From an uncultured beta proteobacterium (GTDB lineage Bacteria; Pseudomonadota; Gammaproteobacteria; Burkholderiales; JACQAP01), in NCBI GenBank assembly GCA_963789945.1, contig CAWBMN010000008.1, positions 131,144 through 195,143 of the forward strand: DNA of 64,000 nt, given 5' to 3'. Numbering within the stretch: position 1 is the first letter of the stretch; the number at the start of each line of letters is the position of its first letter. The position numbers and the translations under genes are program-made. The notes under the pieces were generated by a model that was not told where the DNA came from, searched no databases, and worked only from the letters and a program-made list of their open reading frames with translations. Positions 19,289 to 38,567 of this stretch are shown piece after piece.

Positions 19289-19371
19289 GTAGTCCTGGGG
19301 CGCGGAAAGACCGGTGACCGACACAGCCACCCGCCAGTCTGCATCCAACTTTGCCCGTCCTGGAGAACGCT

Positions 19372-21450
19372 ATGGCTATGCCATCGGAACAAAAAGCCCC
19401 GCACGTCAAGCCTGAACACGATCATGGTCACGGGCATGCCCGCCACCACGCCAATTCGACGGCAGCGAGCGGTCGGCACGCCGCCGGCGGGCACGATCAC
19501 GCGGCCATGATCGGGGACTTCCGCCGCCGCTTCTGGATATCGCTGGTCCTAACGGCGCCGATTCTCTGGCTCTCGCCGATGGTCCGGCATCTTGTCGGCC
19601 TGCGGGAAGCCCCATTCCCCGGCAGCGAATACCTGCTGCTGGTGCTGTCAAGTGCGGTGTTCTTCTACGGCGGCTGGCCGTTCCTCGCCGGTCTCGCATC
19701 GGAACTCCGGAAGCGCCAGCCGGGAATGATGACGCTGATCTCGGTGGCGATCGCCGCAGCCTATTTCTATTCCTCGGCGGTGGTCCTCGGATTGCCCGGC
19801 ACGATGTTTTTCTGGGAGCTGGCCACACTGGTCGACATCATGTTGCTCGGCCACTGGATCGAGATGAAGTCCGTCATGGGCGCATCAAGCGCCCTGAAGG
19901 CGCTGGTGGAATTGCTGCCAGCACAGGCTCACCGGCTGAAATCCGATGGTTCGATCGAAGATGTTTCTGCGTCCGAGATCCGTCCGGGTGACCGCGTGCT
20001 GGTGAAGCCCGGTGAGAAGGTGCCGACCGACGGCGTGATCATGGAGGGCCGCACCAGCATCAACGAGTCGATGCTGACCGGCGAATCCAAGCCCGTCGCC
20101 CGCAGGCCCGGCGACGAGGCGATCGGTGGCTCGATAAACGGCGAAGGCGCCATCACGCTGGAAATCCGCAAGACCGGCTCGGACACCTACCTTTCGCAGG
20201 TGATTGCGATGGTCGAGAAAGCGCAAGCGTCCCGCTCACGTTCGCAGGACCTCGCCAACCGCGCTGCATCCTGGCTGACTTATATCGCGCTCGGTGTCGG
20301 ACTGGCGACGCTATTTGCCTGGCTGTTCCTGGGCGAGAGTTTCGCTTTCGCAATGGAACGCATGGTAACGGTGATGGTGATCGCCTGCCCGCACGCGCTG
20401 GGGCTCGCCGTTCCGTTAGTGGTGGCGGTCAGCACCAGCATGGCGGCAAAGAGCGGGCTTCTGATTCGAGACCGCGCCGCCTTCGAGCGGGCGCGTAACC
20501 TGAAGGCGGTTGTGTTCGACAAGACCGGTACGCTGACCGAAGGGCGTTTCGGTGTGACTGACATGGTGGCTTTCTCCGGCTCAGATGAGAAAGAGATCCT
20601 GCTTCTTGCGGCAACTCTGGAAAGCCAATCCGAGCATCCGATTGCAAAGGGCATCGTCGCCAAGGCCGAGGAGCTGGGTATCAGGCTTGGGCAAGTGACG
20701 GATTTTCGCAACATCACCGGCCAGGGCGCGGTGGCGAAAGTGGATGGCGCCGAACTGGCCGTGGTAAGTCCCGGCTATCTCGAGCAAGCCGGCATCAGGG
20801 TGAACGAACCGCGCATCACGGCGCTCGCCACCCAGAGCAAGACGGTTGTTTATGTACTGCGCGAGAACCGGCCGATTGGCGCGATCGCGCTCGCCGACAT
20901 CGTGCGCCCGGAGTCCCGTCAAGCGGTCGCACGGCTGAAAGCGATGGGTATCCAGTGCATGATGCTCACCGGTGACAACCGCGCGGTAGCCAAAGCCGTG
21001 GCCGATGAACTCGGGCTCGACGACTACTTCGCCGAGGTGCTGCCCGGCCAGAAAGCCGACAAGATTCGCGAAATCCATTCGCGCGGGCTGACTGTAGCCA
21101 TGGTGGGCGACGGCGTGAACGACGCGCCGGCGCTGGTGGAATCGGACCTGGGCATCGCGGTGGGCGCCGGCACCAACGTGGCGATCGAGTCCGCAGATGT
21201 CGTCCTGGTGCGCAGCAATCCGCAGGACGTCGCCGACATTCTCTGGCTGTCGCGTGCCACTTACCGAAAGATGGTGCAGAACCTGTTCTGGGCCACCGGC
21301 TACAACACCATCGCCATCCCGCTCGCCGCCGGAGTCACCGCAAACATCGGTTTCCTGATGTCTCCGGCACTCGGCGCGGTGTTCATGTCGGCCAGCACCG
21401 TCATCGTCGCCATCAACGCGCAACTGCTGGCGCGGGCGCGCCAGACCTAG
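19372..21450 (+). CDS. copB: copper-translocating P1B-type ATPase, CopB-like (CPH motif, His-rich N-terminus, no CxxC MBD)
   Basis: GGAGA-6 nt-ATG at 19372. N-terminus HVKPEHDHGHGHARHH. TM6 has IACPHALGLA. DKTGTLT and GDGVNDAP are present. Confidence 0.9.
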   Translation: MAMPSEQKAPHVKPEHDHGHGHARHHANSTAASGRHAAGGHDHAAMIGDFRRRFWISLVLTAPILWLSPMVRHLVGLREAPFPGSEYLLLVLSSAVFFYGGWPFLAGLASELRKRQPGMMTLISVAIAAAYFYSSAVVLGLPGTMFFWELATLVDIMLLGHWIEMKSVMGASSALKALVELLPAQAHRLKSDGSIEDVSASEIRPGDRVLVKPGEKVPTDGVIMEGRTSINESMLTGESKPVARRPGDEAIGGSINGEGAITLEIRKTGSDTYLSQVIAMVEKAQASRSRSQDLANRAASWLTYIALGVGLATLFAWLFLGESFAFAMERMVTVMVIACPHALGLAVPLVVAVSTSMAAKSGLLIRDRAAFERARNLKAVVFDKTGTLTEGRFGVTDMVAFSGSDEKEILLLAATLESQSEHPIAKGIVAKAEELGIRLGQVTDFRNITGQGAVAKVDGAELAVVSPGYLEQAGIRVNEPRITALATQSKTVVYVLRENRPIGAIALADIVRPESRQAVARLKAMGIQCMMLTGDNRAVAKAVADELGLDDYFAEVLPGQKADKIREIHSRGLTVAMVGDGVNDAPALVESDLGIAVGAGTNVAIESADVVLVRSNPQDVADILWLSRATYRKMVQNLFWATGYNTIAIPLAAGVTANIGFLMSPALGAVFMSASTVIVAINAQLLARARQT

Positions 21451-21491
21451 GCAGCGGCCATGCCACCCTTGCAGAACGGGGAAACGACTTC

Positions 21492-22013
21492 ATGAACATG
21501 CCGAGGTCACGCGTTCACTTCGCAGAGCACATGAAACCCTTATCCGCTCTGGTCAACACGCCGGAGTTCAACGTCGTTATTTTCTCGCTTCTGCTGAATC
21601 TGGCATGGGAGGTCTGGCAGGTGCCGTTCTTCCTGGGGATGGCCGACCAGCCGCACTGGCTGGGCGTGAAGGCCTGCACACAGGCTACTTTCGGCGATGC
21701 GGGGATTGCGCTGGCCGCGTTCTGGGTCACGGCTCTCATTGCCAGGTCCAGAACCTGGATCATGCGACCGAGCAGGTCGGACATTGCAGTCTTCATCGGC
21801 GTCGGGCTTGTAGCAACAATTGCCTTTGAAACACTGGCCACCGGAGCACTCGAGCGCTGGGCCTATAGCGACGCGATGCCGCGCCTGCCGGTCCTGGGGA
21901 CCGGATTGCTGCCGCTCTTGCAGTGGCTGGCACTTCCGCCGCTCGTCCTGTGGTTCGTCCGCCGACAGATTGCCCCTGGATATCGTGAGCAATCTGACGG
22001 GAAAGCAACTTAG
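21492..22013 (+). CDS. hypothetical membrane protein (about 4 TM)
   Basis: 173-aa ORF with hydrophobic segments, directly downstream of copB. No family recognised. An alternative start is at 21531. Confidence 0.5.
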   Translation: MNMPRSRVHFAEHMKPLSALVNTPEFNVVIFSLLLNLAWEVWQVPFFLGMADQPHWLGVKACTQATFGDAGIALAAFWVTALIARSRTWIMRPSRSDIAVFIGVGLVATIAFETLATGALERWAYSDAMPRLPVLGTGLLPLLQWLALPPLVLWFVRRQIAPGYREQSDGKAT

Positions 22014-23299
22014 GCGGGGTTAAGTTTCGGGTGGGTCTCTTCGCCCCAGAACCAGAGAGCGCCGCCGGACAGCATCATGGCAATGGCTACGAACCAGAAT
22101 CCGCTTTCGATGGCTCCGGTGGCGCTGGCCGCGAGTCCCATGCCCAGACCACCAATAGCGTAGCCGATGTCGCGCCAGAAACGGTAAATCCCGATAGCGG
22201 AGCCGCGCCATTCCGGATGGGCAATATCCGCGACCGCGGCGCTCAGATTCGGGTAGAGCAGAGCCATTCCGAGCCCGCTCAGTCCGGCACACAGCGCCCA
22301 CCACCATATGTTCTCAAAAACGAGCATCAGGCCCACGCCGGTCCCGCAGAGCCACATGCCCCAGACATTCAACATGTGCCGGCCTACATGGTCGGACAGT
22401 TTCCCGGAAAACAGCTGCGCCCCACCCCATACGAAACCGTAGGCGCCGATCACCCAGCCGATGCCGCTGATGCTGACGCCGTAGCGGTAAAGAAAAACCG
22501 GGAAGAACACCCATACCAGCGCATCGACGAACTTCTCGACCAGACCAGCCTGGCACAGCGCCAGCAATCGTTTGTCACGCCAGGACATGAGGGTAAATAC
22601 TTCCCAGGTCGACGCCTGGTTCGAGATATTCCTTGGGTACCGCGCCGCGTGTTTGGCCGGTTTGGTCGAATGCCTCGCCGCCTCGGCGCGCGCCCAGGGT
22701 CGCGTATCCTTGACCCACAACAATGTGAGCGCAATGGCCAGCACAATGACGGTCAGCCCGAACACGGCGACTCCCTGGCGAGGCCCGAGTGCGCCAGCTA
22801 GGTAGGCGGTAATGATTCCTGCGCCCGCTACGCCGACGTAACCCGAAAACTCATTCAATCCGATGGTGAGTCCGCGCTGCTCGGGGCGGGTGATGTCGAG
22901 TTTTGCAGTCTGGGTCATTGACCAGGTGAGCCCCTGGTTGACGCCGAGCAGAACCGTCGCTGCCACGATCCAATTCCAGCTTGGCCCCCACAGGAGCATC
23001 GGCGGAATCGGTAACGCCACTAGCCAGCCGAGCAACAGCACCCGCTTGCGCCCGATGCGTTCAGAGAGTCGGCCGGCAACGAAATTCATTACGCCTTTCA
23101 CGAAGCCGAACGCCACCACGAAGGCGGTGAGCAGCACGAAAGAATTGCGTGCCAGCCCGAACTCGCTCTCCGCTAGAGTGGGCACCACGGTGCGCATCAT
23201 GCCGATGGTGAAGCCCACCAGCAGTACCTGCAGCAACTGATGAGCGAACTGCCCGAGGTTATGGCGAATTCCGTGCAGGAGTTCGCTGGCGTGAGACAT
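22010..23299 (-). CDS. MFS transporter
   Basis: 429 aa, about 12 TM, with the MFS loop motif GRLSERIGRKR. Confidence 0.85.
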   Translation of the reverse strand: MSHASELLHGIRHNLGQFAHQLLQVLLVGFTIGMMRTVVPTLAESEFGLARNSFVLLTAFVVAFGFVKGVMNFVAGRLSERIGRKRVLLLGWLVALPIPPMLLWGPSWNWIVAATVLLGVNQGLTWSMTQTAKLDITRPEQRGLTIGLNEFSGYVGVAGAGIITAYLAGALGPRQGVAVFGLTVIVLAIALTLLWVKDTRPWARAEAARHSTKPAKHAARYPRNISNQASTWEVFTLMSWRDKRLLALCQAGLVEKFVDALVWVFFPVFLYRYGVSISGIGWVIGAYGFVWGGAQLFSGKLSDHVGRHMLNVWGMWLCGTGVGLMLVFENIWWWALCAGLSGLGMALLYPNLSAAVADIAHPEWRGSAIGIYRFWRDIGYAIGGLGMGLAASATGAIESGFWFVAIAMMLSGGALWFWGEETHPKLNPA

Positions 23300-23322
23300 G
23301 ACCGGCTGGTTCGTGAACGTCT

Positions 23323-24042
23323 TCAGCCGGCAATGTTGGCCGCAACAATCTGGTCCATGTTGGCGGGACGCAGCGGGATCTCGCGCACCACGTATTCAAT
23401 GAATTTTTCCCGGTCGTTGATGGACAGGGCCGGATTCCAGCGCTTCTCGAACCCGAGAGTCGAGGACGGCTTGCCAGAGAGGCCGGCACCGCAAACGCTT
23501 CCCGCCTGGTGGCCGGGAAAGATCTCCAGCGTATCGGGCAGCGGCAGAATCCGATTCCGCAGCGTATCGAAGAGGATACCGGCCATTTCGCGCTCCCGCC
23601 CCGCCAGGTCCGGCCTGCCGACTGCGCCGACGAAGAGCGTATCCCCGGTCAGGACAAACCACGGGTCACCGCCGCGGCGCTTGTCGGTGACTACGAGCGA
23701 CATGCCGTCCTTCGTGTGGCCCGGGGTGTGCATGATCTTGAGTATCGTATTGCCGGCTTCGATGGTCTGGCCATCATGCAAAGGCGTAAACGGGAACTTC
23801 ACGAAACCCCTGTTGCTCTCGTGCAGGCAGTAGGCCGCACCAGTCATCGTCGCCAGTTTGCGACCGCCCGAGTAGTGATCGGCATGGATATGGGTGTCGA
23901 TAACATGGGTGATTTCGGATTTGGCTGTGCTCGCCTGCTCGATGAACCAGTCCTCGTCCCCGGCCACCACATCGACCGCGACAGCTTTGCCGAGTGTCCC
24001 GCAACGGGGCGGCGGGCCGGGCGACGGCAGATGACGCCACAT
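23323..24042 (-). CDS. MBL-fold metallo-hydrolase (persulfide-dioxygenase-like)
   Basis: THIHADH, HTPGHT, GDTLFVG..GRPDL and a PGHQAGSVCG...STLGFEKRWN tail typical of type II/III PDO-like MBL proteins. The N-terminus is short and atypical. Confidence 0.8.
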   Translation of the reverse strand: MWRHLPSPGPPPRCGTLGKAVAVDVVAGDEDWFIEQASTAKSEITHVIDTHIHADHYSGGRKLATMTGAAYCLHESNRGFVKFPFTPLHDGQTIEAGNTILKIMHTPGHTKDGMSLVVTDKRRGGDPWFVLTGDTLFVGAVGRPDLAGREREMAGILFDTLRNRILPLPDTLEIFPGHQAGSVCGAGLSGKPSSTLGFEKRWNPALSINDREKFIEYVVREIPLRPANMDQIVAANIAG

Positions 24043-24893: not shown

Positions 24894-24964
24894 CCCTCGC
24901 AAGCACTGAATCCGCCGCGTTAGCGGCTGTTCGTGTTTTCCTTGCGGAGGCATCATGGAATTCC

Positions 24965-26374
24965 TTGGATTTCCCGGTAGCGGCAACCGTTGCCGCACCC
25001 ATTAAATTTGCGTGGATCAGTTCGTCTCGCGTATTTCGTCCGGATCGCGAAGCGATTCGCCGGAATTTCCGTAGAATCGTCCTCGCCATCCTGGCAGGCG
25101 CAATTGTTCTCGGCGGTAGCGTTTCCGCCGCCGAGGCGCCGCTGACGCTCGCCGAGGCGCAACGTCGCGCAGTGGAACGTTCACGCCAGACATCGGCACA
25201 GGACCTTGCTATTGCCGCCTCGCGAGAAATGGCGTTGGCCGCAGGGCGGTTACCCGACCCCGTGCTCACACTGGGGATCGACAACCTGCCGATCGATGGC
25301 CCCGATCAATTCAGCCTTACAAACGACTTCATGACGATGCGCCGCATCGGAGTGATGCAGGAGTTCACGCGTTCCGAAAAGCGTCAACTGCGCGCCCAGA
25401 GATCGGAACGCGAGGCCGAAAAGTCCGTCGTGGAGAAGGCAGCTACAGTCGCCTCGATCCAGCGCAATTCCGCGCTGGCCTGGCTCGACCGCTACTACGC
25501 CGAGGCATCGGCAGCGGTGATTGCGCAGCAAGCCAGGGAGGCCAAGCTTGAAATTGTGGCCGCCGAAGGTGCCTACCGTGCCGGCCGCGGTAATCAGGCC
25601 GACGTCTTCGCGGCGCACAGCGCGCTGGTTGGATTGGAGGTTCAGGCAAGCGATCTTGACCGCCGAATCCGCACCGCAACGATCAACCTGGCTCGCTGGA
25701 TAGGTGAGGGAGCCGACGCGCCGTTGGCGGGCAAACCCGCGATCGATTCCATTCGTCTGGATACTGGTGCGCTCGACACCCAGCTCGCCCATCACCCGGA
25801 GATCACCATTCTCGCCAAGCAGGAAGAGATTGCGTCGACAGAGGCCAGGATGGCCCAGGCCGAGAAAAAGGCGGACTGGAGCCTGGAGGTTGCGTACCAG
25901 AAACGGGGCCCTTCTTACTCCGACATGATCTCGGTCGGCGTTTCCATCCCATTGCAGTGGGACCAGAAGAACCGCCAGGACCGGGAGTTCGCAGCCAAGC
26001 TTGCGCTGGCCGAACGGGCCAGGGCCGAGCATGAGGAGTCGCTGCGCGCGCACGTCGGCGAAGTGCGGGCGATGATCGCGGAATGGGAAAACGGCCGCGA
26101 CCGCCTGGCACGCTATGAACGTGATCTGGTTCCGCTCGCGAGGGAGCGCACCAAGGCAGCGCTCGCCGCCTACCAGGGCGGCAAGGCGAATCTGTCCGAC
26201 TTGCTTCTGGCTCGCCGCAACGAAATCGAAATACGCATGCAGGCGGTGCAATTGGAATCCGACATTGCGCACCTGTGGGGGCAGCTTAATTTCCTGATCC
26301 CGGACGGCGCCGGAGCGACTCATGCGAGCGTTCCGGCGCAGCCAAGCGCGAACCGGGGCAAGGAGCCAAGATGA
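24965..26374 (+). CDS. cusC: TolC-family outer membrane factor of the Cu/Ag efflux system
   Basis: 469-aa ORF from TTG at 24965 with OEP repeats. The signal peptide RRNFRRIVLAILAGAIVLGGSVSAAEA begins about 30 codons in, so the start is uncertain (see findings). Confidence 0.85.
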   Translation: MDFPVAATVAAPIKFAWISSSRVFRPDREAIRRNFRRIVLAILAGAIVLGGSVSAAEAPLTLAEAQRRAVERSRQTSAQDLAIAASREMALAAGRLPDPVLTLGIDNLPIDGPDQFSLTNDFMTMRRIGVMQEFTRSEKRQLRAQRSEREAEKSVVEKAATVASIQRNSALAWLDRYYAEASAAVIAQQAREAKLEIVAAEGAYRAGRGNQADVFAAHSALVGLEVQASDLDRRIRTATINLARWIGEGADAPLAGKPAIDSIRLDTGALDTQLAHHPEITILAKQEEIASTEARMAQAEKKADWSLEVAYQKRGPSYSDMISVGVSIPLQWDQKNRQDREFAAKLALAERARAEHEESLRAHVGEVRAMIAEWENGRDRLARYERDLVPLARERTKAALAAYQGGKANLSDLLLARRNEIEIRMQAVQLESDIAHLWGQLNFLIPDGAGATHASVPAQPSANRGKEPR

Positions 26375-27939
26375 AAACCAGAAATCTCCTTCTCGCGCTT
26401 GCCGCTGTAAGCCTCCTCGGCGCCGCCGGTTATGGCCTTTACTGGGTCGGCATGAACCGGGGCATGAAGATAACGGAATCGACTCCTGGCTTGGCACCCG
26501 CCGGCGGCGGCCCCCAACAAAAAGTCCCCGCAGATAAGAAGATCCTGTACTGGCATGACCCGATGGCGCCAGGGCAGAAGTTCGACAAGCCGGGCAAATC
26601 GCCATTCATGGACATGCCGCTGGTCCCCGTCTACGCCGATGGCAATGGCGACGAAGGCTCGGTAACGATCAGCCCGCGCGTGCAACAGAACCTGGGCGTG
26701 CGTACGGCCGAGGTAACGACGGGCACTCTGGCAGCAGCGGTGGAAGCGGTGGGTACCGTAGCCTTCAACGAGAGGGATCAGGCTGTAGTGCAGGCGCGCA
26801 GCAACGGCTTTGTTGAGAAGCTCCATGTGCGGGCGCCACTCGACCCTGTGCGCAAGGATCAGCCGCTGGCGGAGTTGTACGTCCCCGAGTGGGTCGCGGC
26901 GCAGGAAGAGTACCTCTCCGTGCGGCGCATGACCGGCACCCGGTTGGAAGCGTTGGTGGATGGCGCCCGTCAACGCATGCGTCTTGTTGGCATGACGGAA
27001 CAGCAGATCCGCCTGGTCGAGACTACCGGCAAGATCCATTCGCGATTGACGGTGAGTGCCCCGATCAGCGGCGTCGTCGCGGAACTTGGTGCGCGCGAAG
27101 GCATGGCAGTGATGGCGGGAGCGACGCTATTCCGAATCAACGGGCTCGATACCGTCTGGGTAAACGCGGAAGTCCGCGAGGCCCAGGCAAGCGAGGTGCG
27201 GCCCGGCAATCTGGTCGAAGCGCGAACATCCGCACTACCCGGCGCCACGTTCAAGGGTCGCGTCAATGCCATCCTGCCTGAGGTCAATCCTGTGACCCGC
27301 ACGCTCAAGGCGCGAGTCGAATTGGCGAATCCGAACGGAAAACTGGTGCCGGGGATGTTTGCCACGGTCAACTTCGTGCCCGCCGCGCGCAAGGAAGCCC
27401 TCCTGGTGCCGACCGAGGCGGTAATCCGGACCGGAAATCGCAGCGTCGTCATCGTCGCGCAGGGCGACGGGCAATTTGCTCCGGTCGATGTGGAAATCGG
27501 GATGGAAAGCGGGGGTCGGACCGAGATCCGGAATGGGCTCGAAGCCGGCCAGAAAGTCGTGGTGTCCGGCCAGTTCCTGATCGATTCGGAAGCAAGTCTC
27601 AGGGGAACCGCAACACGCATGGGCGATGCCCCGGTACCGCAAGGCGGGACGGCCGGTAGCGGGACACATCGAGCGCAAGGGAAGATCGAGCGCATTGGCA
27701 AGGACGCAGTCACGATATCGCACGGCGCAATCCCATCATTGGAGTGGGAGCCGATGACCATGGACTTCGGGCTGCCGGCGAACGGGCTTCCCGGGGACTT
27801 CGCGGTGGGTGACACGGTCACGTTCGAATTTCGCGAAAACAGGCAGGGCATGTTCGAAATCGCGACCATCACGCCAATAGCCCGGGCGCCGGCGCACCCG
27901 GGACATGGCGAAGGCGACGTGCCAGGAACCGCGAAATGA
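26371..27939 (+). CDS. cusB: RND efflux membrane fusion protein CusB with a fused C-terminal CusF-like domain
   Basis: YWHDPMAPGQKFDKPGKSPFMDMPLVP at the N-terminus. The last ~90 aa contain VTISHGAIPSLEWEPMTMDF, a CusF-type metal site. 522 aa. Confidence 0.9.
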   Translation: MKTRNLLLALAAVSLLGAAGYGLYWVGMNRGMKITESTPGLAPAGGGPQQKVPADKKILYWHDPMAPGQKFDKPGKSPFMDMPLVPVYADGNGDEGSVTISPRVQQNLGVRTAEVTTGTLAAAVEAVGTVAFNERDQAVVQARSNGFVEKLHVRAPLDPVRKDQPLAELYVPEWVAAQEEYLSVRRMTGTRLEALVDGARQRMRLVGMTEQQIRLVETTGKIHSRLTVSAPISGVVAELGAREGMAVMAGATLFRINGLDTVWVNAEVREAQASEVRPGNLVEARTSALPGATFKGRVNAILPEVNPVTRTLKARVELANPNGKLVPGMFATVNFVPAARKEALLVPTEAVIRTGNRSVVIVAQGDGQFAPVDVEIGMESGGRTEIRNGLEAGQKVVVSGQFLIDSEASLRGTATRMGDAPVPQGGTAGSGTHRAQGKIERIGKDAVTISHGAIPSLEWEPMTMDFGLPANGLPGDFAVGDTVTFEFRENRQGMFEIATITPIARAPAHPGHGEGDVPGTAK

Positions 27940-30900
27940 TCGCGAAGCTCATCCGTTGGTCGATCGCCAATCGCTTCCTGGTGTTGCTCGCTACGCTGAT
28001 GCTCACGGCGTGGGGCGTCTGGTCGTTGTCGCGAAACGCCGCTCGATGCGATCCCCGATCTGTCGGACGTGCAGGTCATCATCCGCACGACTTATCCGGG
28101 CCAGGCACCGCAGATCGTCGAGAACCAGATCACCTATCCGCTCACCACGACCATGCTCTCGGTACCTGGGGCGAAGACAGTGCGCGGCTATTCGTTCTTC
28201 GGCGATTCTTTCGTTTACGTGCTGTTCGAGGATGGCACGGATCCTGTTCTGGGCGCGATCCCGCGTGTACTCGAGTACCTGAACCAGGTGCAATCGCGTC
28301 TGCCGCCGCAGGCGAAGAACCGTCCTCGGGCCGGACGCCACCGGCGTCGGCTGGATCTACGAGTATGCGTTAGTGGACCGCAGCGGCGAGAATGGACCTG
28401 TCGCAACTACGCGCACTGCAGGACTGGTTTCTCAAGTACGAACTCAAGGCCGTACCGAACGTGTCGGAAGTGGCGAGCATCGGCGGCATGGTGCGGCAGT
28501 ATCCAGATCGTGCTCGAGCCGGACAAGCTGCGCGCTTACAACATCCCGCATGGTAAGGTGATCGAGGCGGTTCAACGTGCGAACCAGGAAACCGGCGGCT
28601 CGGTGCTGGAGTTGGGCGAAGCGGAATACATGGTGCGCGCGTCGGGCTATCTGCAGATCGCTCGACGACTTCCGCAAGATTCCGCTGACGACGACCGATG
28701 CAGGGGTCTCGGTGCGGCTGGGTGACGTGGCGCGCATCCAGATCGGCCCGGAGATGCGGCGCGGCATCGCGGAACTGAACGGCGAAGGCGAAGTCGCCGG
28801 CGGCGTCATCGTCATGCGCTCGGGCAAGAACGCGCTGGAAACCATCGAGGCGGTGAAGGCAAAGCTGGAGCAACTGAAGCCCGGCCTGCCAGCCGGGGGT
28901 CGAGATCATCCCGACCTATGATCGTTCAAGCCTGATCAAACGGGCAGTGACGAATCTCGAACGAGAAGCTGATCGAGGAATTCGTCGTCGTCGCCCTCGT
29001 ATGCCTGGTGTTCCTGTTCCACATCCGCTCTGCCTTCGTCGCGATCGTCTCCCTGCCGCTGGGGGTCTTGGTCGCCTTCACCGTCATGACTTACCAGGGC
29101 GTGAACGCGAACATCATGTCGCTGGGCGGCATTGCGATCGCCGTCGGCGCCATGGTCGATGCCGCGGTGGTGATGATCGAGAATGCCCATAAGCACATCG
29201 AAGCCTGGAACCACGACGCATCCCGGCGAGACCCTGAAGGGCGAGACGCGCATTGGCGGGTGATTGGGGATGCCGCGGCTGAAGTCGGGCCGGCGTTGTT
29301 CTTTTCGCTGCTCATCATCGTGCTGTCGTTCATTCCGGTGTTCACGTCTGGAGGCGCAGGAAGGGCGCCTTTTCTCGCCGCTTGCCTTTACCAAGACCTA
29401 CACCATGGCGGCGGCGGCGGGCCTTGCGGTGACGCTGATCCCGGTGTTGATGGGTTACCTCATCCGCGGGCGCATCCCGGCGGAGCGGAAGAACCCGCTC
29501 AACCGCTTCCTGATCGCGCTCTATCGGCCGATGCTCGACACGCGTACTGCGCTTTCCCGAGACAACCACGGTTGTCGCCGCCGTCGCTGGCGGCCGTCGC
29601 CACGCTCTGGCCGGCTGGGACAACTTGGCGGCGAGTTCATGCCGCCGCTCGATGAAGGCGACCTGCTCTATATGCCTTCAGCGCTGCCGGGCATTTCCGC
29701 GGGCAAGGTAGCGGAGTTGCTGCAGCAGACCGACCGGCATGATCAAGACCGTACCGGAGGTGGCAAGCGTGTTCGGCAAGGCAGGCCGCGCGGAGACCGC
29801 GACCGATCCGGCGCCATTGGAAATGTTCGAAACCACCATCCAGTTCAAGCCCCGCGACCAGTGGCGACCCGGCATGACGACGGACAAGCTGGTCGAGGAA
29901 CTGGATCGACATCGTCAAGCGTGCCGGGACTGTCGAATATCTGGGTGCCGCCGATCCGTAATCGCATCGACATGCTGGCCACCGGCATCAAGAGCCCTGT
30001 TGGCGTAAAGGTGGCAGGAATGAGCCTGGCGGAGATCGATCGCATTGCCGCGGAGGTCGAGCGCGTCGTAAAGCGCGTGCCGGGCGTCTCGTCCGCGCTG
30101 GCTGAACGGCTGACGGGCGGGCGATATGTGGACGTAAAGATCGATCGTGATGCCGCGGCACGCTACGGCATGAACATCGCCGACGTGCAGGGCATCATCT
30201 CGGCGGCGATCGGCGGTGACAACATCGGGGAGACGGTCGAGGGACTGCAACGCTTCCCCATCAATGTACGCTATCCGCGCGAAGTGCGCGATTCGGTCGA
30301 GAAACTGCGCCAGCTTGTCGATATCTGACCGACCGCGGAGCGCAGATCCGGCTTGGCGACGTTGCGGCGATCCAGATCAACGACGGCCCGCCGATGCTGA
30401 AGAGCGAAAACGCCCGATTTCGGGCTGGGTGTACATCGATATTCGGGGACGCGATCTCAGTTCCGCGGTGCGCGACATGCAGCAGGCGGTGGCGAAAGAG
30501 GTGCGGCTCCCGGCCGGCTACTCGATCTCCTGGTCTGGCCAGTTCGAATTCCTGGAACGCGCGACGGCGAAACTGAAAATCGTCGTGCCGGCCACACTGC
30601 TCATCATCTTCGTGCTGCTGTACCTGACCTTTCAGCGCGTCGATGAAGCATTGCTGATCATGGCCACACTGCCGTTCGCCCTCGCGGGCGGCATCTGGCT
30701 GCTTTGGATACTCGGGCACAACGTCTCGGTGGCCAGCGCGGTAGGGTTTCATCGCGCTCGCCGGCGTGGCGGCGGAGTTCGGCGTGATCATGCTGCTGTA
30801 CCTCAAGCATGCCTGGGAGGCGCGCCTGGCCAAGGGCAAGACCAGCGAGGTCGATCTGCTCGAAGCCATACGTGAAGGCGCCGTGCTGCGGGTGCGTCCC

Positions 30901-31130
30901 AAGGCGATGACCGTAGCGGTGATCATCGCCGGCCTGTTGCCGATCATGTCGGGACCGGCACCGGCTCGGAGGTCATGCAACGCATCGCCGCACCGATGGT
31001 GGGCGGGATGATCACCGCACCACTGCTGTCGATGTTCGTGGTGCCGGCGGTGTATCTGCTCTTGCGTCGGCCGCGCGGTTTGCGCATCGCGCATCCGGTC
31101 CAGACAGCAACGGGCCATGAAGCCGCGTGA
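27936..31130 (+). pseudogene. cusA: HME-RND Cu/Ag efflux pump CusA, interrupted by about 22 frameshifts as sequenced
   Basis: CusA homology runs continuously but hops among all three forward frames, through ORFs 27936, 28069, 28373, 28577, 28947, 29008, 29264, 29739, 30216, 30394 and 30766. Start MIAKLIRWSIANRF, end ...[10 protein letters not shown]..., stop at 31128. Confidence 0.9.
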
Positions 31131-31674: not shown

Positions 31675-33201
31675 TCAGTCCGCGGCGAGCGCCTCGGCTT
31701 CGATTTCGGCAAGCTGCGGCACCGACAGTTCGATGCCGAGCTTGTTCCAGTTCCTGATCTCGTCGCGCAGTTCGGCCGCAGTGAGGGGGTTCGCGGCGAG
31801 CCAGCGCGCATCCAGCTCGACGGTGAACGTGCTCTTCTTTTTCGATGCATGGATCGCCGGCAGCCGCACTTCGGAGTGGCTGCGATGCATCAGCGCCGCC
31901 AGCCGCAACGCGACCAGCAGTGTCCAGTCGGCGTCCTTGGCGACCATCCCGCGCAGCTTGTCGAGCGAACCGCGGTGCGCCAGCACCAGCAGCGACAGGT
32001 GTGCCTGTTCCATCTTGGAGAAACCCGGCATGTCGGCGTGGCCGATGATGTAAGCGGAGTGCTTGTGGTATCCGGAATGCGCTACGGAAAAACCGATCTC
32101 ATGCAGGCGCGCCGCCCAGGACAACATCTGCATCGGGTACTCGCGTTGCGCCTTGTCGCCCCCCGCCAGCTGCTCGAATAGTTTCAGCGCCAGTCGTTCG
32201 ACCCGATGCGCATGGGTGGACTCGACGTGGTAACGCTTCATGAACTGGCGCACCGTCAGTTCGCGCATGTCGCGACGATGCGCCCGGCCGATCATGTCCC
32301 AGAGGATGCCCTGGCGCATCGCGCCGTTTGCGAGCGCCATGTGTTCCACGTCGAGTTCAGCAAAGATCGCGCTCATGATGGCGAACCCGCCGGGCAGCAC
32401 CGCAACCCGGTCTTCCCGCAATCCCGGCAGATCCGATTTAGCAGCGTCGCCGGCCTTGAGCAGTGCGCCGCGCAGACGCTCCATGCCTTCGGCGGTGATT
32501 CCCGATTCGCTCCAGCCATTGGCTTCAAGAATGTCTCCGATCGAACGCGCGGTGCCGGAGGAGCCGACCGCCTGCTGCCAATGCTTGCGCGAGAACTGCT
32601 TGCGGATCGTTTCCACTTCGATGCGGGCGGCCAGCTCCGCTTGTTTCATGCTGGACTTGCCGATCCTGCCGTCGGGAAAGTACCTGAGGCTGTAGCTGAC
32701 GCAGCCCATGTACAGGCTCTCGAGTTTATGCGGCTGATTGCCGGCACCGATGATGAATTCGGTGGAGCCGCCGCCGATGTCCACCACCAGACGCTTTTCC
32801 GGAGCAGCCGGCAGGCTATGTGCGACGCCCAGGTAGATCAGCCGCGCTTCCTCGCGTCCGGCCACGACTTCGATCGGGAAGCCGAGGGCGGCCTCGAACC
32901 GGGGCATGAATTCGCCGGCGTTCTTTGCCACCCGCAGGGTGTTGGTGCCGACCGCGCGCACCGCGCCTGGCGGCAGTCCGCGCAGGCGTTCGCCGAAGCG
33001 TTTCAGGCATTCGATCGCGCGCGCCTGCGCCGCATCGTCGAGGTGCTTTTCGGGGGTCAGGCCGGCGGCGAGCCGTACCGGCTCACGCAACGAATCGAGG
33101 GGATAGATCTGGTCGTCGACAACGCGTCCGACCTGGAGCCGGAATGAGTTGGATCCGAGGTCGACTGCCGCAATGGTCGGGGGCGTTTCCATCACGGCCA
33201 T
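31675..33201 (-). CDS. ppx: exopolyphosphatase (Ppx/GppA family)
   Basis: 508 aa, IAAVDLGSNSFRL..., DIGGGSTE, and a C-terminal HD-like region. Confidence 0.93.
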   Translation of the reverse strand: MAVMETPPTIAAVDLGSNSFRLQVGRVVDDQIYPLDSLREPVRLAAGLTPEKHLDDAAQARAIECLKRFGERLRGLPPGAVRAVGTNTLRVAKNAGEFMPRFEAALGFPIEVVAGREEARLIYLGVAHSLPAAPEKRLVVDIGGGSTEFIIGAGNQPHKLESLYMGCVSYSLRYFPDGRIGKSSMKQAELAARIEVETIRKQFSRKHWQQAVGSSGTARSIGDILEANGWSESGITAEGMERLRGALLKAGDAAKSDLPGLREDRVAVLPGGFAIMSAIFAELDVEHMALANGAMRQGILWDMIGRAHRRDMRELTVRQFMKRYHVESTHAHRVERLALKLFEQLAGGDKAQREYPMQMLSWAARLHEIGFSVAHSGYHKHSAYIIGHADMPGFSKMEQAHLSLLVLAHRGSLDKLRGMVAKDADWTLLVALRLAALMHRSHSEVRLPAIHASKKKSTFTVELDARWLAANPLTAAELRDEIRNWNKLGIELSVPQLAEIEAEALAAD

Positions 33202-33226
33202 TTTGCCTCAAAAATACTTTGAAACA

Positions 33227-33388
33227 CTCACCGCAAAGACGCAAAGGACGCGAAGGAAAATCACCTCACCCCCCGCCCTCTCCAGCAAGCTGGAGAGGGT
33301 GCCCAAAAACTACACGATCGTGGATCAGCGCGTTTCCATCACCCTCTCCACCCGGTTGTTGGGGGGAGAGGGATGGGGTGAGGGGGGC
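33227..33388. repeat. composite intergenic repeat: degenerate CGCAAAG heptad arm plus alternating GGAGAGGG..GGGGTGAGG units
   Basis: CTCACCGCAAAGACGCAAAGGACGCGAAGGAAAA lies at 33227-33260. A perfect 11-bp palindrome, CCCTCTCCAGC-aa-GCTGGAGAGGG, lies at 33276-33299. A second hairpin pairs 33342-33349 with 33365-33372. A long-range inverted repeat pairs 33261-33283 with 33365-33387. Confidence 0.75.
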
Positions 33389-33437
33389 GCTCTCTGCGGT
33401 AAGCGTTATGGGTATGGTGTGATGCCAGTGCCGCCTG

Positions 33438-34145
33438 TCAGCCCATGACCTCGCGCTCGATCTCCTCGAGCGTGACGTGGCGCACGTCCTTGCCCTTGAC
33501 CATGTAGATCACGTACTCGGAGATGTTCTTGGCGTGGTCGCCGATACGCTCGATCGCCTTGGCGATGAACAGGATCTCGATGGAAACCGAGATGGTGCGC
33601 GGATCTTCCATCATGAAAGTGATGAGCTGGCGCAGCACGCCACGGAACTCCTCGTCCACGTGCTGATCGCGGCGCACCACTTCGGCGGAGGCTGCCAGAT
33701 CCAGCCGGGCGAACGCGTCCAGCGACTTGCGCAGCATTTCCAGCGCGATCTGCGACATGCGGCGGATTTCCACGGTGCGCGGCTGCTGCAACCGGTCGGT
33801 GGAATAGATCAGCTTGGCCATGCGCGCGATCTTCGCCGCCTCGTCGCCGATGCGTTCCAGGTCGGTAATGGTCTTCACTACCGTCATCAGCATGCGCAGA
33901 TCGCCGGCCGCCGGCTGGCGGCGGGCGATGATGGTGCTGCAGTCTTCGTCGATGCCGACTTCCAGACCGTTGACCATGTGGTCGTTATTCTCGACTTTGG
34001 TGCAGAGCTCGAGGTCGCCCGAGATCAGGGCATCCAGTGCCAGCTTGATCTGCTCTTCCACCAGCCCGCCCATGTGCAGCACGCGGGCGCGCACGGCCTC
34101 AAGTTCGGCATCGAACTGCTTGGATGTATGTTCAGAATTGGCCAT
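33438..34145 (-). CDS. phoU: phosphate signalling complex protein PhoU
   Basis: 235 aa with two PhoU repeats, each with an E(R/A)IGD motif. Confidence 0.93.
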   Translation of the reverse strand: MANSEHTSKQFDAELEAVRARVLHMGGLVEEQIKLALDALISGDLELCTKVENNDHMVNGLEVGIDEDCSTIIARRQPAAGDLRMLMTVVKTITDLERIGDEAAKIARMAKLIYSTDRLQQPRTVEIRRMSQIALEMLRKSLDAFARLDLAASAEVVRRDQHVDEEFRGVLRQLITFMMEDPRTISVSIEILFIAKAIERIGDHAKNISEYVIYMVKGKDVRHVTLEEIEREVMG

Positions 34146-34877: not shown

Positions 34878-35001
34878 GGTCCTGCAGCGTCTGAAACTGC
34901 CTGTCAAGCATAGCGTCAACGCCTCATAGGCACAAATTAAGATATCCGGTTGCGCCCGTTCGTTCCCGGCTGTTACGCTCGAAAGAACCTTGGGAGACGC
35001 G

Positions 35002-36515
35002 ATGAAGACCGATTACCTGGAAAGAATCCTGACTGCGCGCGTCTACGACGTTGCGGTCGAAACTCCGCTCGAGCTGGCTCCGGCACTGTCGCGCCAGGCT
35101 CGGCAATACCCTGCTGCTCAAGCGCGAGGACATGCAGCCGGTGTTCTCCTTCAAGCTGCGCGGCGCATACAACAAGATGGCTAACCTCAGTGCTGCCCAG
35201 CGCAAACGCGGCGTGATCGCCGCCTCGGCGGGCAATCATGCGCAAGGCGTGGCGCTGGCGGCAAATCACCTGCGCTGCCGCGCCACCATCGTCATGCCCG
35301 CGACCACGCCGCAGATCAAGATCGCGGCCGTGGCGGCGCGCGGCGCGCGGGTGGTGTTGTTCGGCGACTCCTACGACGAGGCCTACGCGCACTCGCTGAA
35401 GATCGCCAGGCGCGAGAAGCTCACTTTCGTGCATCCCTACGACGACCCGGACGTCATCGCCGGGCAGGGCACCATCGGCATGGAAATCCTGCGCCAGCAC
35501 GGCGGCCCGATCGACTGCCATTTTCGTTGCCGTCGGCGGCGGCGGTTTGATCGCCGGGATCGCGGCTTACGTCAAGCGCCTGCGTCCGGAGATCCGGATC
35601 ATCGGCGTCGAGCCGGTCGATGCCGACGCGATGGCCCGCTCCCTTGCTGCCGGCCACAGGGTAAAGCTGGCGCAGGTGGGGCTCTTTGCCGATGGCGTCG
35701 CCGTCAAGCAGGTCGGCGTCGAAACCTTCCGTCTTTGCAGGGAACTGGTCGACGAGATGATCCTGGTGGACAACGATGCCATCTGCGCCGCGATCAAGGA
35801 CGTATTCGAGGACACCCGCTCGATTCTGGAACCCGCGGGCGCGCTCGCGATCGCCGGTGCCAAGGCGTACGCCGAGCGCCGCAGGCAGAAAGGCCAGACC
35901 TATGTCGCGGTCGCATGCGGGGCCAACATGAACTTCGACCGCCTGCGCTTCGTCGCCGAGCGCGCCGAACTGGGCGAGAGACGCGAGGCCATCCTGGCGG
36001 TGACGATCCCCGAGCGCCCCGGCAGCTTCAAGCAGTTTTGTTCGCTTCTGGGCGCGCGCAACGTCACCGAGTTCAACTATCGCTATGCCGATCCCGCGCA
36101 AGCCCATGTGTTCGTCGGCGTGCAGGTGCGCGACCGCAATGAGACCCGCAAGCTGATTGCGCGGTTGCGCCGCAAGAAGCTGCCGACGCTCGATTTCAGC
36201 GACAACGAGATGGCCAAGCTGCATGTGCGCCATCTGGTGGGCGGCCGCGCGCCCTCGGTCGAAAACGAGAGGTTGTACCGTTTCGAGTTCCCGGAGCGCC
36301 CGGGAGCGCTGATGAAATTTCTCGACAGCATGAGTCACGACTGGAACATCAGCCTTTTCCACTACCGCAATCACGGTGCCGACTACGGGCGCGTTCTGGT
36401 GGGAATGCAGGTCCCGCCGCGCGACCAGGCGGCGTTCCGCAGATTTCTCTCGCAACTGGGCTATGCGCACTGGGACGAGACCCGGAACCCTGCTTATTCG
36501 CTGTTTCTGGCCTAA
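35002..36515 (+). CDS. ilvA: biosynthetic threonine ammonia-lyase (threonine dehydratase), carrying two +1 frameshifts as sequenced
   Basis: GGGAGA RBS and ATG at 35002. Homology continues from frame 1 to frame 2 at about 35096, and from frame 2 to frame 0 at about 35516. The span is 1514 nt (504 codons plus 2 nt). PLP motif SFKLRGA. Two C-terminal ACT-like regulatory repeats. Confidence 0.85.
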
Positions 36516-36593: not shown

Positions 36594-38498
36594 GTGAAAA
36601 GAAGCCTTGCCGTACTGCTGTTCGCCTCCTGCGCCGCATTGGCTGCGCCCGACGACGAAGCTTTCCTCGAAGCGCGTGAAGCGTTCCAGCGTGGCGACAT
36701 CGCACGGCTGGACCAGGTTGCGAAGCAGCTCGACGACAACTATGCGCTGGCCCCGTATGTGCAGTACTGGCAACTGCGATCGCGCCTCGCCGATCTGTCT
36801 CCCGGCGAGATCCAGAACTTCCTGGCCGGTTACAAGAACAGCCTGGTTGCCGACCGGTTACGCGCGGACTGGTTGCGGCAACTGGCCAAGGATCGCGACT
36901 GGCCGGGGTTCCTGCGCGAATACCCGCAACTCACCACCGAAGACCCGGAACTGGTCTGCTTTGCCTATCAGGCACGTCTGGCACAGGGCGAATCCGGGAT
37001 ACTGACGCGGGCACGACCGCTATGGTTCACCGCACAGGTGCTCCCGGAGAGTTGCCTGCCCTTGTTCGAGTTGATGCTCAAGAACGACATGCTCACCGCC
37101 GAGGACACCTGGGTCAGGATCCGGCTTGCGCTGGAAATCGGCAACGTAAGCGGCGCCAAGATGTTGCTTGGTTATCTGCCGGCGGCACAACGCCCGGATC
37201 CGAAGTCCCTGGAATCGATCTCGCGCCGGCCGCAGCAATATCTGGACCGCGCCGCGCTGCCGTTGAAAACCCGTGGCCAGCGCGAACTGGCGATCTACGC
37301 GCTGTACAAGACCGCGGAGGGCTGGCCGCAGACCGCCGCCGAACGGCTGCCCAAGATTTCCAAGGATTGGCCGGACGCCGAACGCGAATACGCATGGGCG
37401 CAGATCGCCTCCGTCGCTGCGCGCAATCTTCATCCCGACCCTCTTCCCTGGTTCAGAAACGCCGCCAACGGCATGAACGATCGCCAGCTCACATGGCGTG
37501 CCCGCGCCGCGCTGCGCGCCGGCGACTGGAACGAGGTGCTTGCCGCCATCGAGGCGATGTCGCCGGGGGAATACAAATGGCCGCAATGGCGCTACTGGAA
37601 GGCGCGCGCGTTGTCGGCGCTGGGCCGCGAGTCCGAAGCCAACGCGTTGCTGGCGCCGCTTTCCAACCAGTTCAACTTCTACGGCCAGCTCGCTGCGGAG
37701 GAACTGGGCACCTCGATCAGCACGGTGCCGCAGACCTATCGGCCTGACGACGACGAGGTCGAGGCGATTGCGAAGGAACCGGGCATCGTGCGTGCGCTAA
37801 AGCTATATGAAATCGGCCTGCGCTACGAAGGCGCGCTGGAATGGCAGTGGGCCGTCAAGGACTATGAAGACAAGCAGTTGCTCGCCGCCGCCGAACTGGC
37901 ATCGCGGATCCAATGGTACGAACGCGCCATCGACACCGCAGAGCGCACCGTGTTGCTGCACGATTTCGGATTGCGCTACCCGACTCCGTATCGCGAGCTG
38001 GTGCAGGATTACGCCGGCCAGCTCGACCTCGACGAGGCTTGGGTCTACGGCCTGGTGCGCCAGGAGAGCCGCTTCGTGCACACTGCCCGGTCCACCGCCG
38101 GCGCCAGCGGGTTGATGCAGTTGATGCCGTCCACCGCGCGCTGGGTGGCGAAGCGCCTGGGCCTGAGCGGCCATCACGGCACGCTCACTTCAACGGCGGA
38201 CTCCAACATCGTGCTGGGCACCTATTATCTGCGCGAGATGATGGATTCGCTGGACAATCAAATGGTGCTCGCCTCCGCCGGTTACAACGCCGGCCCGCGA
38301 CGCGCGCGCGAGTGGATCGCCAGCCGCGCACTCGAGGGTGCGGTCTATATCGAGACCATCCCCTTCTCCGAAACGCGCGAGTATGTCAAGCGGGTCATGA
38401 ACAATACGCTGTATTATGCGCGGCTGTTGCGGCAGCCGGGACCCAGCCTGCGCGAGCGGCTCGGCACCATCCCGGCCAGGATGCCGCAGAACAACTGA
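36594..38498 (+). CDS. slt: soluble lytic murein transglycosylase (Slt70 family)
   Basis: GTG start with a signal peptide, 634 aa. Superhelical N-domain plus a C-terminal SLT domain (ESRF...GLMQLMPSTA...AGYNAGP). Confidence 0.9.
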   Translation: MKRSLAVLLFASCAALAAPDDEAFLEAREAFQRGDIARLDQVAKQLDDNYALAPYVQYWQLRSRLADLSPGEIQNFLAGYKNSLVADRLRADWLRQLAKDRDWPGFLREYPQLTTEDPELVCFAYQARLAQGESGILTRARPLWFTAQVLPESCLPLFELMLKNDMLTAEDTWVRIRLALEIGNVSGAKMLLGYLPAAQRPDPKSLESISRRPQQYLDRAALPLKTRGQRELAIYALYKTAEGWPQTAAERLPKISKDWPDAEREYAWAQIASVAARNLHPDPLPWFRNAANGMNDRQLTWRARAALRAGDWNEVLAAIEAMSPGEYKWPQWRYWKARALSALGRESEANALLAPLSNQFNFYGQLAAEELGTSISTVPQTYRPDDDEVEAIAKEPGIVRALKLYEIGLRYEGALEWQWAVKDYEDKQLLAAAELASRIQWYERAIDTAERTVLLHDFGLRYPTPYRELVQDYAGQLDLDEAWVYGLVRQESRFVHTARSTAGASGLMQLMPSTARWVAKRLGLSGHHGTLTSTADSNIVLGTYYLREMMDSLDNQMVLASAGYNAGPRRAREWIASRALEGAVYIETIPFSETREYVKRVMNNTLYYARLLRQPGPSLRERLGTIPARMPQNN

Positions 38499-38567
38499 GC
38501 CTCGGGTCTGCGCACCCTGTATTTGCGCGCTGCGGGGATCCCGGAGAAGATCCTTCGTATCGAAAGC

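Follow-up and report, generated by a model that had tools for sequence, protein, structure and literature searches.

The cus operon and its neighbors

The window (i.e., the whole 64,000-nt stretch of DNA analyzed here) contains three forward-strand genes in the order cusC-cusB-cusA. The outer-membrane factor gene cusC (24955..26374) and the membrane-fusion protein gene cusB (26371..27939) lie directly upstream of cusA (27936..31130), the gene for the HME-RND inner-membrane pump, with 4-nt overlaps. This order is syntenic with that in two relatives, L081 and L082. CusC orthologues are 472-aa proteins of the OEP family (PF02321). The 522-aa CusB is a CusB-type adaptor that scores 149 bits against the RND adaptor model TIGR01730, over the cut-off of 94.9, and 344 bits against the NCBIfam CusB-type model, under the cut-off of 390 bits. 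Also in this region are ppx (exopolyphosphatase; 31675..33201, reverse strand) and ilvA (threonine dehydratase; 35002..36515, forward strand). Both cusB and ppx are intact. cusB has no indels relative to L082 and only in-frame differences (3, 12, and 18 nt) from L081, and the exact protein is present in the public record; ppx is intact in alignments with relatives.

Frame-breaking indels in cusA

The cusA gene is broken. Relative to intact orthologues, it carries 23 frame-breaking indels: 19 insertions of one base, two insertions of two bases, and two deletions of one base. These were called by frameshift-aware protein-to-DNA alignment with three intact orthologues as references and, by a second route, by aligning the nucleotide sequence with 12 orthologues and with L081 and L082. 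The +1 insertions are positioned at ~28031, 28242, 28314, 28387, 28502, 28653, 28892, 28962, 29217, 29346, 29543, 29584, 29621, 29739, 29906, 29916, 30314, 30323, and 30743; the +2 insertions are at 28258 and 29241; and the −1 events follow 30419 and 30949. A further insertion, +3 at 29558, is in-frame. A preliminary description of this DNA had reported ~22 indels, and a window-specific indel lies within a few bases of all 22 positions that it listed. Its −1 event at 30325 is, on alignment, two separate +1 insertions (30314 and 30323). It was right that the start and stop share a frame and that insertions strongly predominate, but the net change for the 23 events is +21 (i.e., 0 mod 3) rather than +18 nt, and the insertion:deletion ratio is 21:2 on realignment rather than 19:3.

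The density of indels in cusA is 7.2/kb, compared with 0.24/kb in the 16.6 kb of neighboring sequence that can be aligned to close relatives (binomial p = 5e-15), and a codon-usage HMM run over the whole window detects shredding in cusA only. As written, the gene consists of at least eight ORF fragments, the longest in-frame piece being 354 aa; the DNA as given has no uninterrupted ORF for CusA. Judged by homology, the locus is cusA, yet as written it does not encode CusA. When eight guessed ORF fragments of cusA were looked up for exact matches among public proteins, none matched, an outcome to be anticipated if the record lists cusA as a pseudogene.

Insertions are also found in two neighboring genes. 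In cusC, alignment to L082 and to L083 (a second assembly, see below) reveals one inserted T in codon 3, at 24961. This insertion puts the ATG at 24955 out of frame, such that the longest ORF begins with the TTG at 24965. The cusC protein in the public record, from a 266,416-bp NCBI/ENA contig that also lists the CusB and Ppx proteins, likewise starts at this TTG and is 469 aa long, versus 472 aa in relatives. No other cusC indel was found in the alignment to L082. In ilvA, +1 insertions at 35091 and 35514 are present only in the window when it is aligned to L082 and L083; the L082 gene is intact (503 aa), and the HMM switches frame within the window's copy at a point that has no stop codon close to it. 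The three versions at 35514 are GACTGCC (window), GACGCC (L083), and GCTGCC (L082). The ilvA insertions form a second, smaller patch of the lesion seen in cusA. The initial impression that cusC and cusB are both untouched therefore holds for cusB but not for cusC, and the implication that cusA alone is affected does not stand. The fallback interpretation, a dead pump beside a conserved outer-membrane factor and membrane-fusion protein, is weakened by the frameshift of the same kind in cusC.

The repaired product

Repair of the reading frame yields a stop-free product of 1057 aa, very close to the ~1058 aa anticipated. Its match to TIGR00914, at 1364 bits with a cut-off of 701, covers profile positions 1–1037 of 1051, and its residues 1–1036 align to residues 8–1045 of E. 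coli CusA (3K07/3T51) with 1570 bits; the expected end-to-end collinearity is thus borne out. In this respect the repaired product resembles E. coli CusA (PDB 3K07, 3T51, 3NE5), which is the HME-RND pump for Cu(I)/Ag(I) in the CusCBA system. As had been noticed earlier, the three-methionine site (M573, M623, and M672 in E. coli) is kept, in the contexts DLLYMPS, PLEM, and RIDML (the last as RIDMLATG). Unlike its E. coli counterpart, the window gene as written cannot be translated into the full product.

The gene is extremely conserved and shared widely: more than 100 database proteins are 86–94% identical to repaired CusA, and a protein homology search found none that is >94% identical. Among the matches listed in a search of metagenome contigs, relatives had ≤87% amino acid identity, and no nearer haplotype or donor was among them. 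An intact, 1056-aa cusA is present in each of the syntenic relatives L082, L081, and L050; the lesions are not inherited by these close relatives.

A second assembly of the same population

The second assembly, L083, was deposited in ENA as a metagenome assembly (ERZ25039602, contig_38996). The name of the contig resembles those in metaFlye+Medaka assemblies, e.g., those deposited under PRJEB58634 (PMC12313526); this name and the 266,416-bp length of the public contig are indirect hints of a long-read assembly. Over window positions 38037–44144, L083 differs by 16 mismatches and no indels in 6108 nt (0.26% mismatch), and mismatch is 0–0.9% in phoU, slt, rpiA, and intergenic regions. L083 and the window represent one population. 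Nevertheless, they disagree at the lesion while agreeing in the flanks. L083 has 33 lesions: two in cusC, 13 in cusB (11 of +1, one +2, and one −1), and 18 in cusA (all +1). Its cus operon is likewise stop-free once repaired. L083 is intact at 13 of the sites where cusA has an indel in the window. In the comparison with orthologues for shared indels, which the preliminary description had called for, syntenic relatives are intact, and the same-population assembly lacks 13 window events. The window and L083 have nine insertion positions in common (permutation p ≤ 2e-4), and at some of these the inserted bases are not the same, which suggests a site-specific artifact rather than inheritance.

In cusA, the window and L083 differ by 10.3%, with dS of 0.36, while the flanks are near-identical. 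Neutral decay cannot go beyond the dS of the flanks. A three-way alignment of the window, L083, and L082 reveals a block of window-private substitutions (27900..31100) that coincides with the indel block, with 8–13 private substitutions per 300 nt versus 0–3 in most flanking bins. Similarly, blocks of L083-private substitutions at 26.4–30.6 kb and 35.1–35.7 kb coincide with the L083 indel blocks. These substitutions look foreign but bear the mark of functional genes. In the window's cusA they are distributed 21/18/85 over the three codon positions, with 69% at third positions (chi-square p = 9e-16); in L083 the equivalent values are 21/15/76 for cusB and 40/14/133 for cusA. Because 69% fall at third codon positions, the extra substitutions are real alleles rather than random read errors. 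The lesion thus lies where the sequence bears the signature of mixed alleles from functional genes. The dN/dS of repaired cusA against orthologues, another comparison proposed at the outset, is 0.08–0.13, equal to that of pairs of intact orthologues; with neither raised dN/dS nor stop codons, there is no sign of relaxed selection. Hence, the earlier observation of no substitution decay is upheld as regards selection, but it overlooked an excess of assembly-private, mostly synonymous substitutions. ppx also has 32 window-private substitutions, mostly synonymous, and no indels; a divergent patch can therefore be free of indels, and genuine recombination may account for part of the divergence.

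The inserted bases

The inserted base matches a neighbor in 2/24 events in the window and 2/37 in L083, against an expected fraction of 0.445 (pooled p = 6e-11), and none of the 61 insertions in the two assemblies extends a homopolymer. The insertions are not slippage products. The preliminary description had placed the events mostly outside homopolymers, and no inserted base extends one. With an insertion:deletion ratio of 21:2, the cusA spectrum is not deletion-biased either. By eye, the sequence contexts of the insertions revealed no convincing common motif, GATC included.

Several insertions are the exact union of two known alleles. In cusA, these are ACG/ACC to ACGC (29543), CTG/TTG to TCTG (29347), ATA/ATT to ATAT (30323), CGC/GAC to CGAC (29906), and GGCGAC/GGAGAC to GGCGAGAC (29241); outside cusA, they are TCC/TTC to TTCC (24961, cusC) and GAC/GCT to GACT (35514, ilvA). 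Sites with at least two one-deletion variants among 72 orthologues account for 9/17 insertions versus 0.28 expected (p = 0.03), and sites with at least three account for 5/17 versus 0.04 expected (p = 3e-4), although these tests were devised after the examples had been seen and their significance is only moderate. Mismatches to L082 are not enriched beside the indels; an aligner would absorb a doublet of both alleles into a clean gap. Many L083 insertions are at sites that are not polymorphic between the window and L082, such that only some of the events are explained by the retention of both alleles. The avoidance of neighbor-identical bases also exceeds what retention of both alleles alone predicts (about 25%).

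Possible explanations

The cusA indels are almost certainly consensus errors and not mutations of the living genome, and we consider it likely that they arose from divergent cusA templates that were collapsed in a metagenome assembly. The source contig is very probably a long-read assembly, although we infer its platform and assembler. During assembly or polishing, several divergent copies of cusA would have had their reads or graph edges collapsed onto the locus, with co-occurring strains, other taxa, or paralogues as candidate sources of the foreign templates; the merge step could have been graph collapse or polishing. Where a foreign allele won the vote, the consensus would acquire a substitution, in most cases a synonymous one because every source gene would be functional. 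Where both alleles were kept, or where alignments within the mixed pile disagreed, the consensus would acquire an extra base. The expected outcome would be a strong insertion bias, non-homopolymer contexts, and a clean frame after repair, with blocks that end sharply where the shared, conserved sequence ends. An artifact is favored because L083, from the same population, has a different set of indels; because the indel blocks coincide with selection-filtered private substitutions in both assemblies; because inserted bases rarely match their neighbors and never extend homopolymers; and because of the exact allele unions. Several results count against collapsed templates. No single panel sequence accounts for the private substitutions in a sliding-window search, and the lack of any protein >94% identical means that the native cusA allele is not among database proteins. 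The indel-free divergence of ppx, the L083 insertions at non-polymorphic sites, and the degree to which neighbor-identical bases are avoided also weigh on this side.

A locally poor consensus was also the reading preferred in the preliminary description, and the disagreement with L083, the unraised dN/dS, the non-slippage insertions, and the coincident substitution block all agree with it. That description had named collapsed RND paralogues or thin long-read coverage as possible causes. If only one template was present and its coverage was thin or unpolished, random read errors would have been left behind as the indels, an account that we regard as improbable, though the strongest of the competing ones. 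The lesion is indeed local, with two other small patches (24961 and 34937–35514), and its insertion-biased, indel-dominated, stop-free pattern resembles residual single-molecule read error. However, random error would not be expected to produce 109–124 private substitutions with their third-position bias and dN/dS of about 0.1, to recur at nine identical positions in a second assembly, to favor polymorphic sites, or to match neighbors in just 4/61 insertions. Mixed or collapsed templates therefore fit better than thin coverage alone.

The remaining accounts take the DNA at face value. In bacteria, pseudogene decay is deletion-biased, and spontaneous +1 events are usually neighbor duplications or homopolymer extensions. 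A genuine, very recent pseudogene, in which an insertion-biased mutational burst produced the ~23 cusA indels and those in cusC and ilvA, is quite unlikely. The indels are present in the sequence as deposited, the 24961 insertion is mirrored in a public protein record, and the nine positions common with L083 could be read as inheritance; as in a classical pseudogene of reductive evolution, multiple frameshifts interrupt a once-functional gene. Against this, selection is unrelaxed, there are no stops, the 21:2 ratio runs counter to deletion bias, and there are almost no neighbor duplications or homopolymer extensions. Moreover, L083, 99.7% identical otherwise, is free of 13 of the indels and carries its own set of 33 (13 in cusB), the cusA dS of 0.36 is far above the flank divergence, and the inserted bases differ at some shared sites. 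On the same grounds, the initial judgment that this is not the usual pseudogene erosion was sound. Less likely still, a divergent cus allele would have been imported by homologous recombination, with templated, non-slippage +1 insertions at donor/recipient mismatches. Real recombination would account for why divergent tracts and insertions fall together in both assemblies; if true, it would represent an undescribed mutational process in which both alleles are physically retained in DNA, and recombinant tracts would be inactivated in soil Burkholderiales. Lastly, programmed recoding (+1 frameshifting, bypassing, or RNA editing) could in principle restore a functional CusA, the net shift being 0 mod 3 and the repaired path stop-free. 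The former has a prior of 1 in 3, and the latter is what would be seen if an artifact were superimposed on a functional gene. On inspection, the 23 sites have no motif in common, and they differ between the two same-population assemblies. The shifts are absent from the ~70 orthologous genes that could be checked, and the gene is uninterrupted in every orthologue examined, including syntenic relatives at 93–98% nucleotide identity. With no conservation of sites, recoding, for which no support had been seen earlier, is effectively refuted.

Comparison with known assembly errors

Indel frameshifts are documented in long-read (Nanopore/PacBio) genomes and MAGs (PMC9262707; proovframe, bioRxiv 10.1101/2021.08.23.457338; PMC13543314). 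As in those reports, small indels here fragment genes that are intact in relatives, and protein-guided repair restores the ORF. Those reports stress homopolymer-derived, genome-wide errors, whereas here 0/61 single-base insertions extend homopolymers, ~90% of the errors are insertions, and the lesion spans only a few kilobases, the 64-kb window being clean otherwise. Strainberry (PMC8302730) and Strainy (bioRxiv 10.1101/2023.01.31.526521) deal with the collapse of strains or repeats into one consensus in long-read metagenomes. The locus resembles such a consensus in its third-position allele mosaic, in the disagreement of two assemblies, and in block edges that follow a conserved gene. The collapse here is deduced from sequence, and the strong insertion bias and neighbor-base avoidance at cusA are not citable from those papers.

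Implications

The cus operon of the organism is most likely intact, and no loss of copper/silver efflux should therefore be inferred. The biological weight of the locus is small, and its practical value lies in quality control. It clearly illustrates an error mode that is local, biased toward insertions, and not tied to homopolymers, and that affects highly conserved, widely shared genes of metagenome-assembled contigs. Annotation pipelines will report such loci as pseudogenes. In MAG catalogues, false pseudogenes of this type could be flagged by frameshifts that are nearly all +1, by inserted bases unlike either neighbor, by the position of the frameshifts within a block of private synonymous substitutions, and by disagreement among sister assemblies.

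The cus locus and the fragmentation of cusA

The cusC-cusB-cusA operon lies at 24.9–31.1 kb of the window, which has a G+C content of ~62%. In the ORF listing, cusC is a single ORF of 469 aa from a TTG start, cusB (26371–27939) is a single ORF of 522 aa, and the cusA interval (27936–31130) consists of eight or more overlapping ORF pieces of 51–354 aa each. The operon is surrounded by genes of phosphate metabolism, with ppk1, CYTH-CHAD, and PPK2 upstream and ppx, phoU, rpiA, ilvA, and slt downstream. The copper genes, cusCBA among them, are inserted between polyphosphate genes (regions 9301–24042 and 31675–34145), with ppk1, CYTH-CHAD, and PPK2 on the upstream side and ppx and phoU on the downstream side; an OEP gene (15791–17524), a multicopper oxidase (17521–18855), and a P-type ATPase (19351–21450) are found near the cus operon. 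Among the Pfam matches to the orthologous CusB proteins (window 26371–27939 and two relatives, L081, 2453–4054, and L082, 3680–5248) are an HMBD at the N terminus and a CusF_Ec-like domain, which suggests that CusB here is a fusion with a CusF-type metallochaperone.

We aligned cusA to three intact orthologues with a frameshift-aware protein-to-DNA method, and at the nucleotide level to 12 orthologues, L081, and L082, the references being intact copies of cusA taken from public contigs that are syntenic or related. All alignments agree on the window-specific events. There are 19 insertions of one base (at ~28031, 28242, 28314, 28387, 28502, 28653, 28892, 28962, 29217, 29346, 29543, 29584, 29621, 29739, 29906, 29916, 30314, 30323, and 30743), two of two bases (28258 and 29241), and two 1-base deletions (after 30419 and after 30949), together with an in-frame 3-base insertion at 29558. 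These positions match those of the preliminary description to within a few bases, except that a −1 change placed at 30325 is in fact a pair of +1 insertions. Taken together, the frame-breaking events add +21 rather than +18 nt, still 0 mod 3, so the start and stop codons do share a frame.

The indel pattern is real as an observation and statistically extreme. Across 24.3–44.1 kb, the part of the window alignable to close relatives, window-only frame-breaking indels occur at 7.2/kb in cusA versus 0.24/kb elsewhere (p = 5e-15). When codon usage was decoded along the full 64 kb with a Viterbi algorithm, just two places, cusA and 35.1–35.5 kb, had frame switches with no stop codon near them. The latter interval falls in ilvA (35002–36515, + strand). 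At 35091 and 35514, this gene carries +1 insertions specific to the window; it is whole in both L082 (503 aa) and L083 (504 aa), the latter from a second, independent assembly of the window's population. This lesion is of the same kind as that in cusA. Nor is cusC untouched, as had been thought: an extra T at 24961, in codon 3, changes GAA-TCC to GAA-TTCC, such that the true ATG at 24955 is thrown out of frame and meets a stop after 24 codons. The visible ORF therefore begins at the TTG at 24965.

Selection on the repaired gene

With the events taken out, cusA encodes a 1057-aa product without a stop codon, in keeping with the earlier reading of the repaired path. Against TIGR00914 (cut-off 701) it scores 1364 bits, and its residues 1–1036 align with E. 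coli CusA (1570 bits), three-methionine contexts included, so the collinearity proposed previously is borne out. Its closest full-length public protein is 94% identical.

Nei-Gojobori dN/dS for the repaired gene is 0.08–0.13 against four orthologues (L081, L050, L005, and L082), equal to that among the intact orthologues themselves (0.08–0.11) and below that of cusB and cusC. Three-taxon branch arithmetic on the same distances gives ~0.08–0.12 for the window branch. Neither the pairwise nor the branch estimate shows any sign of relaxed selection. Over a neutral period long enough to accumulate 23 indels, substitutions free of constraint would be expected to number roughly a few hundred.

A second assembly of the same population

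A look-up of the window's PhoU protein identified L083, a 133-kb ENA metagenome contig (ERZ25039602, contig_38996). Outside the cus region, L083 represents the window's own population: over the 6108 nt of window 38037–44144, the two sequences show 16 mismatches and not one indel, and mismatch in phoU, slt, rpiA, and intergenic sequence is 0–0.9%. In the cus region, L083 (rc coordinates ~1300–8200) has 33 frameshifts, nearly all +1: two +1 in cusC, 13 in cusB (11 of +1, one +2, and one −1), and 18 of +1 in cusA. None of the repaired paths contains a stop codon. Single insertions are also present in ppx, rpiA, and ilvA of L083.

The two assemblies disagree within cusA. Thirteen of the window's indel sites are intact in L083, and the two genes differ by 10.3% (dS 0.36), a difference that, beside near-identical flanks, cannot have arisen by neutral decay. 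Three-way alignment of the window, L083, and L082 reveals substitutions private to one assembly, and in each assembly the block of private substitutions coincides with the block of indels: 27.9–31.1 kb in the window; 26.4–30.6 kb in L083, with a small patch at 35.1–35.7 kb that also holds two insertions. By codon position (1/2/3), private substitutions number 21/18/85 in the window's cusA, 21/15/76 in L083 cusB, and 40/14/133 in L083 cusA. The third-position excess (p ~1e-15) identifies them as alleles of functional genes, as opposed to products of decay or of random errors in reads. In cusA, nine positions with an insertion in the window have one in L083 too (permutation p <= 2e-4), some with a different inserted base, which points to site-specific artefacts rather than inheritance.

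Divergence from L082 is highest across cusA-ppx (dS 0.26 and 0.18, versus 0.035–0.09 in flanking genes), suggesting genuine recombination at the locus besides the artefact. In ppx (31800–33000, − strand), 32 window-private, mostly synonymous substitutions occur with no indel, and dN/dS against L082 is 0.05; these are probably genuine strain variation.

Character of the insertions

Of 61 single-base events (24 in the window and 37 in L083), only 4 added a base identical to one of its neighbors, versus a fraction of 0.445 expected for random insertion (p = 6e-11), and none of the 61 extends a homopolymer. Most spontaneous +1 mutations duplicate a base within a run; hence, the spectrum is not that of biological slippage.

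Several insertions are the exact union of two alleles known from relatives. In cusA, ACG (L082) and ACC (L050) give ACGC at 29543, CTG and TTG give TCTG at 29347, ATA and ATT give ATAT at 30323, CGC and GAC give CGAC at 29906, AAGG and AGCG give AAGCG at 29916, and GGCGAC and GGAGAC give GGCGAGAC at 29241. The cusC lesion at 24961 combines TCC and TTC (TTCC), and that in ilvA at 35514 combines GAC (L083) and GCT (L082) to give GACT. For each +1 event, we searched the homologous columns of 72 orthologues for variants of the local 11-mer that lack one base, and counted how many different ones occurred. At least two variants were present at 9 of 17 events, versus 0.28 when insertions were simulated at random (p = 0.03), and at least three at 5 of 17, versus 0.04 (p = 3e-4). 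These tests were designed post hoc, after the examples were known, and the enrichment lends only moderate support to a picture in which both alleles would have been kept. Many insertions in L083 lie off sites that are demonstrably polymorphic.

Possible origins of the indels

The cusA indels are best explained as an artefact of assembly or polishing, and the feature as not biological. The locally poor consensus favored in the preliminary description therefore stands, upheld by the disagreement with L083, dN/dS, the insertion spectrum, and the private-substitution block. Thin coverage alone, one form that such a consensus could take, does not explain the indels, since it accounts for neither the third-position private substitutions nor the recurrent insertion sites. 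The selection tests, a mutation spectrum unlike slippage, the conflict between the two assemblies, and the intact cusA of L082, L081, and L050 all contradict the reading of cusA as a real pseudogene. Programmed recoding, already rejected at the outset, is excluded in practice because the frameshift sites are not conserved and, with contexts inspected by eye, have no common motif. The window's cusA stretch probably agrees with the public record; at least the cusC lesion, which is of the same type, occurs in the public protein set, where the 469-aa TTG-start product comes from a 266,416-bp contig and relatives have 472 aa.

More than 100 public relatives of the repaired CusA have 86–94% identity, and the matches listed include hundreds more from soil metagenomes at 70–87%, making cusA an obvious inter-genome repeat. 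We infer that graph construction or polishing merged divergent versions of cusA onto the locus; these would have come from co-occurring strains, taxa, or paralogues. A foreign allele would be taken at some sites, appearing as synonymous "substitutions" in the consensus; at others, both alleles or inconsistent alignment columns would be kept, appearing as insertions. The block would end where similarity among the sources falls off, which would be cusA alone in the window's sample, and cusB plus cusA in that of L083. Avoidance of neighbor-identical insertions might, as a guess, reflect a separate homopolymer-length step of the polisher. In style, the names and sizes of the contigs resemble those of metaFlye+Medaka metagenomes, e.g., PRJEB58634 (PMC12313526), to which a link would be conjecture. 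In long-read MAGs, the pattern can serve as a recognizable mark of false pseudogenes.

The ppx-phoU intergenic region (33223–33341) has segments of 10 and 67 nt that the window and L083 share and L082 lacks; the segment contains a perfect hairpin, GCCCTCTCCAGC...GCTGGAGAGGGT, and might represent a small insertion of REP-like or terminator type. In L081 (JGI 3300019790, 10962–11309), ilvA is short of ~1.25 kb, leaving a 115-aa remnant that joins PALP and Thr_dehydrat_C matches, and reflecting either a true deletion or mis-assembly of the L081 contig.
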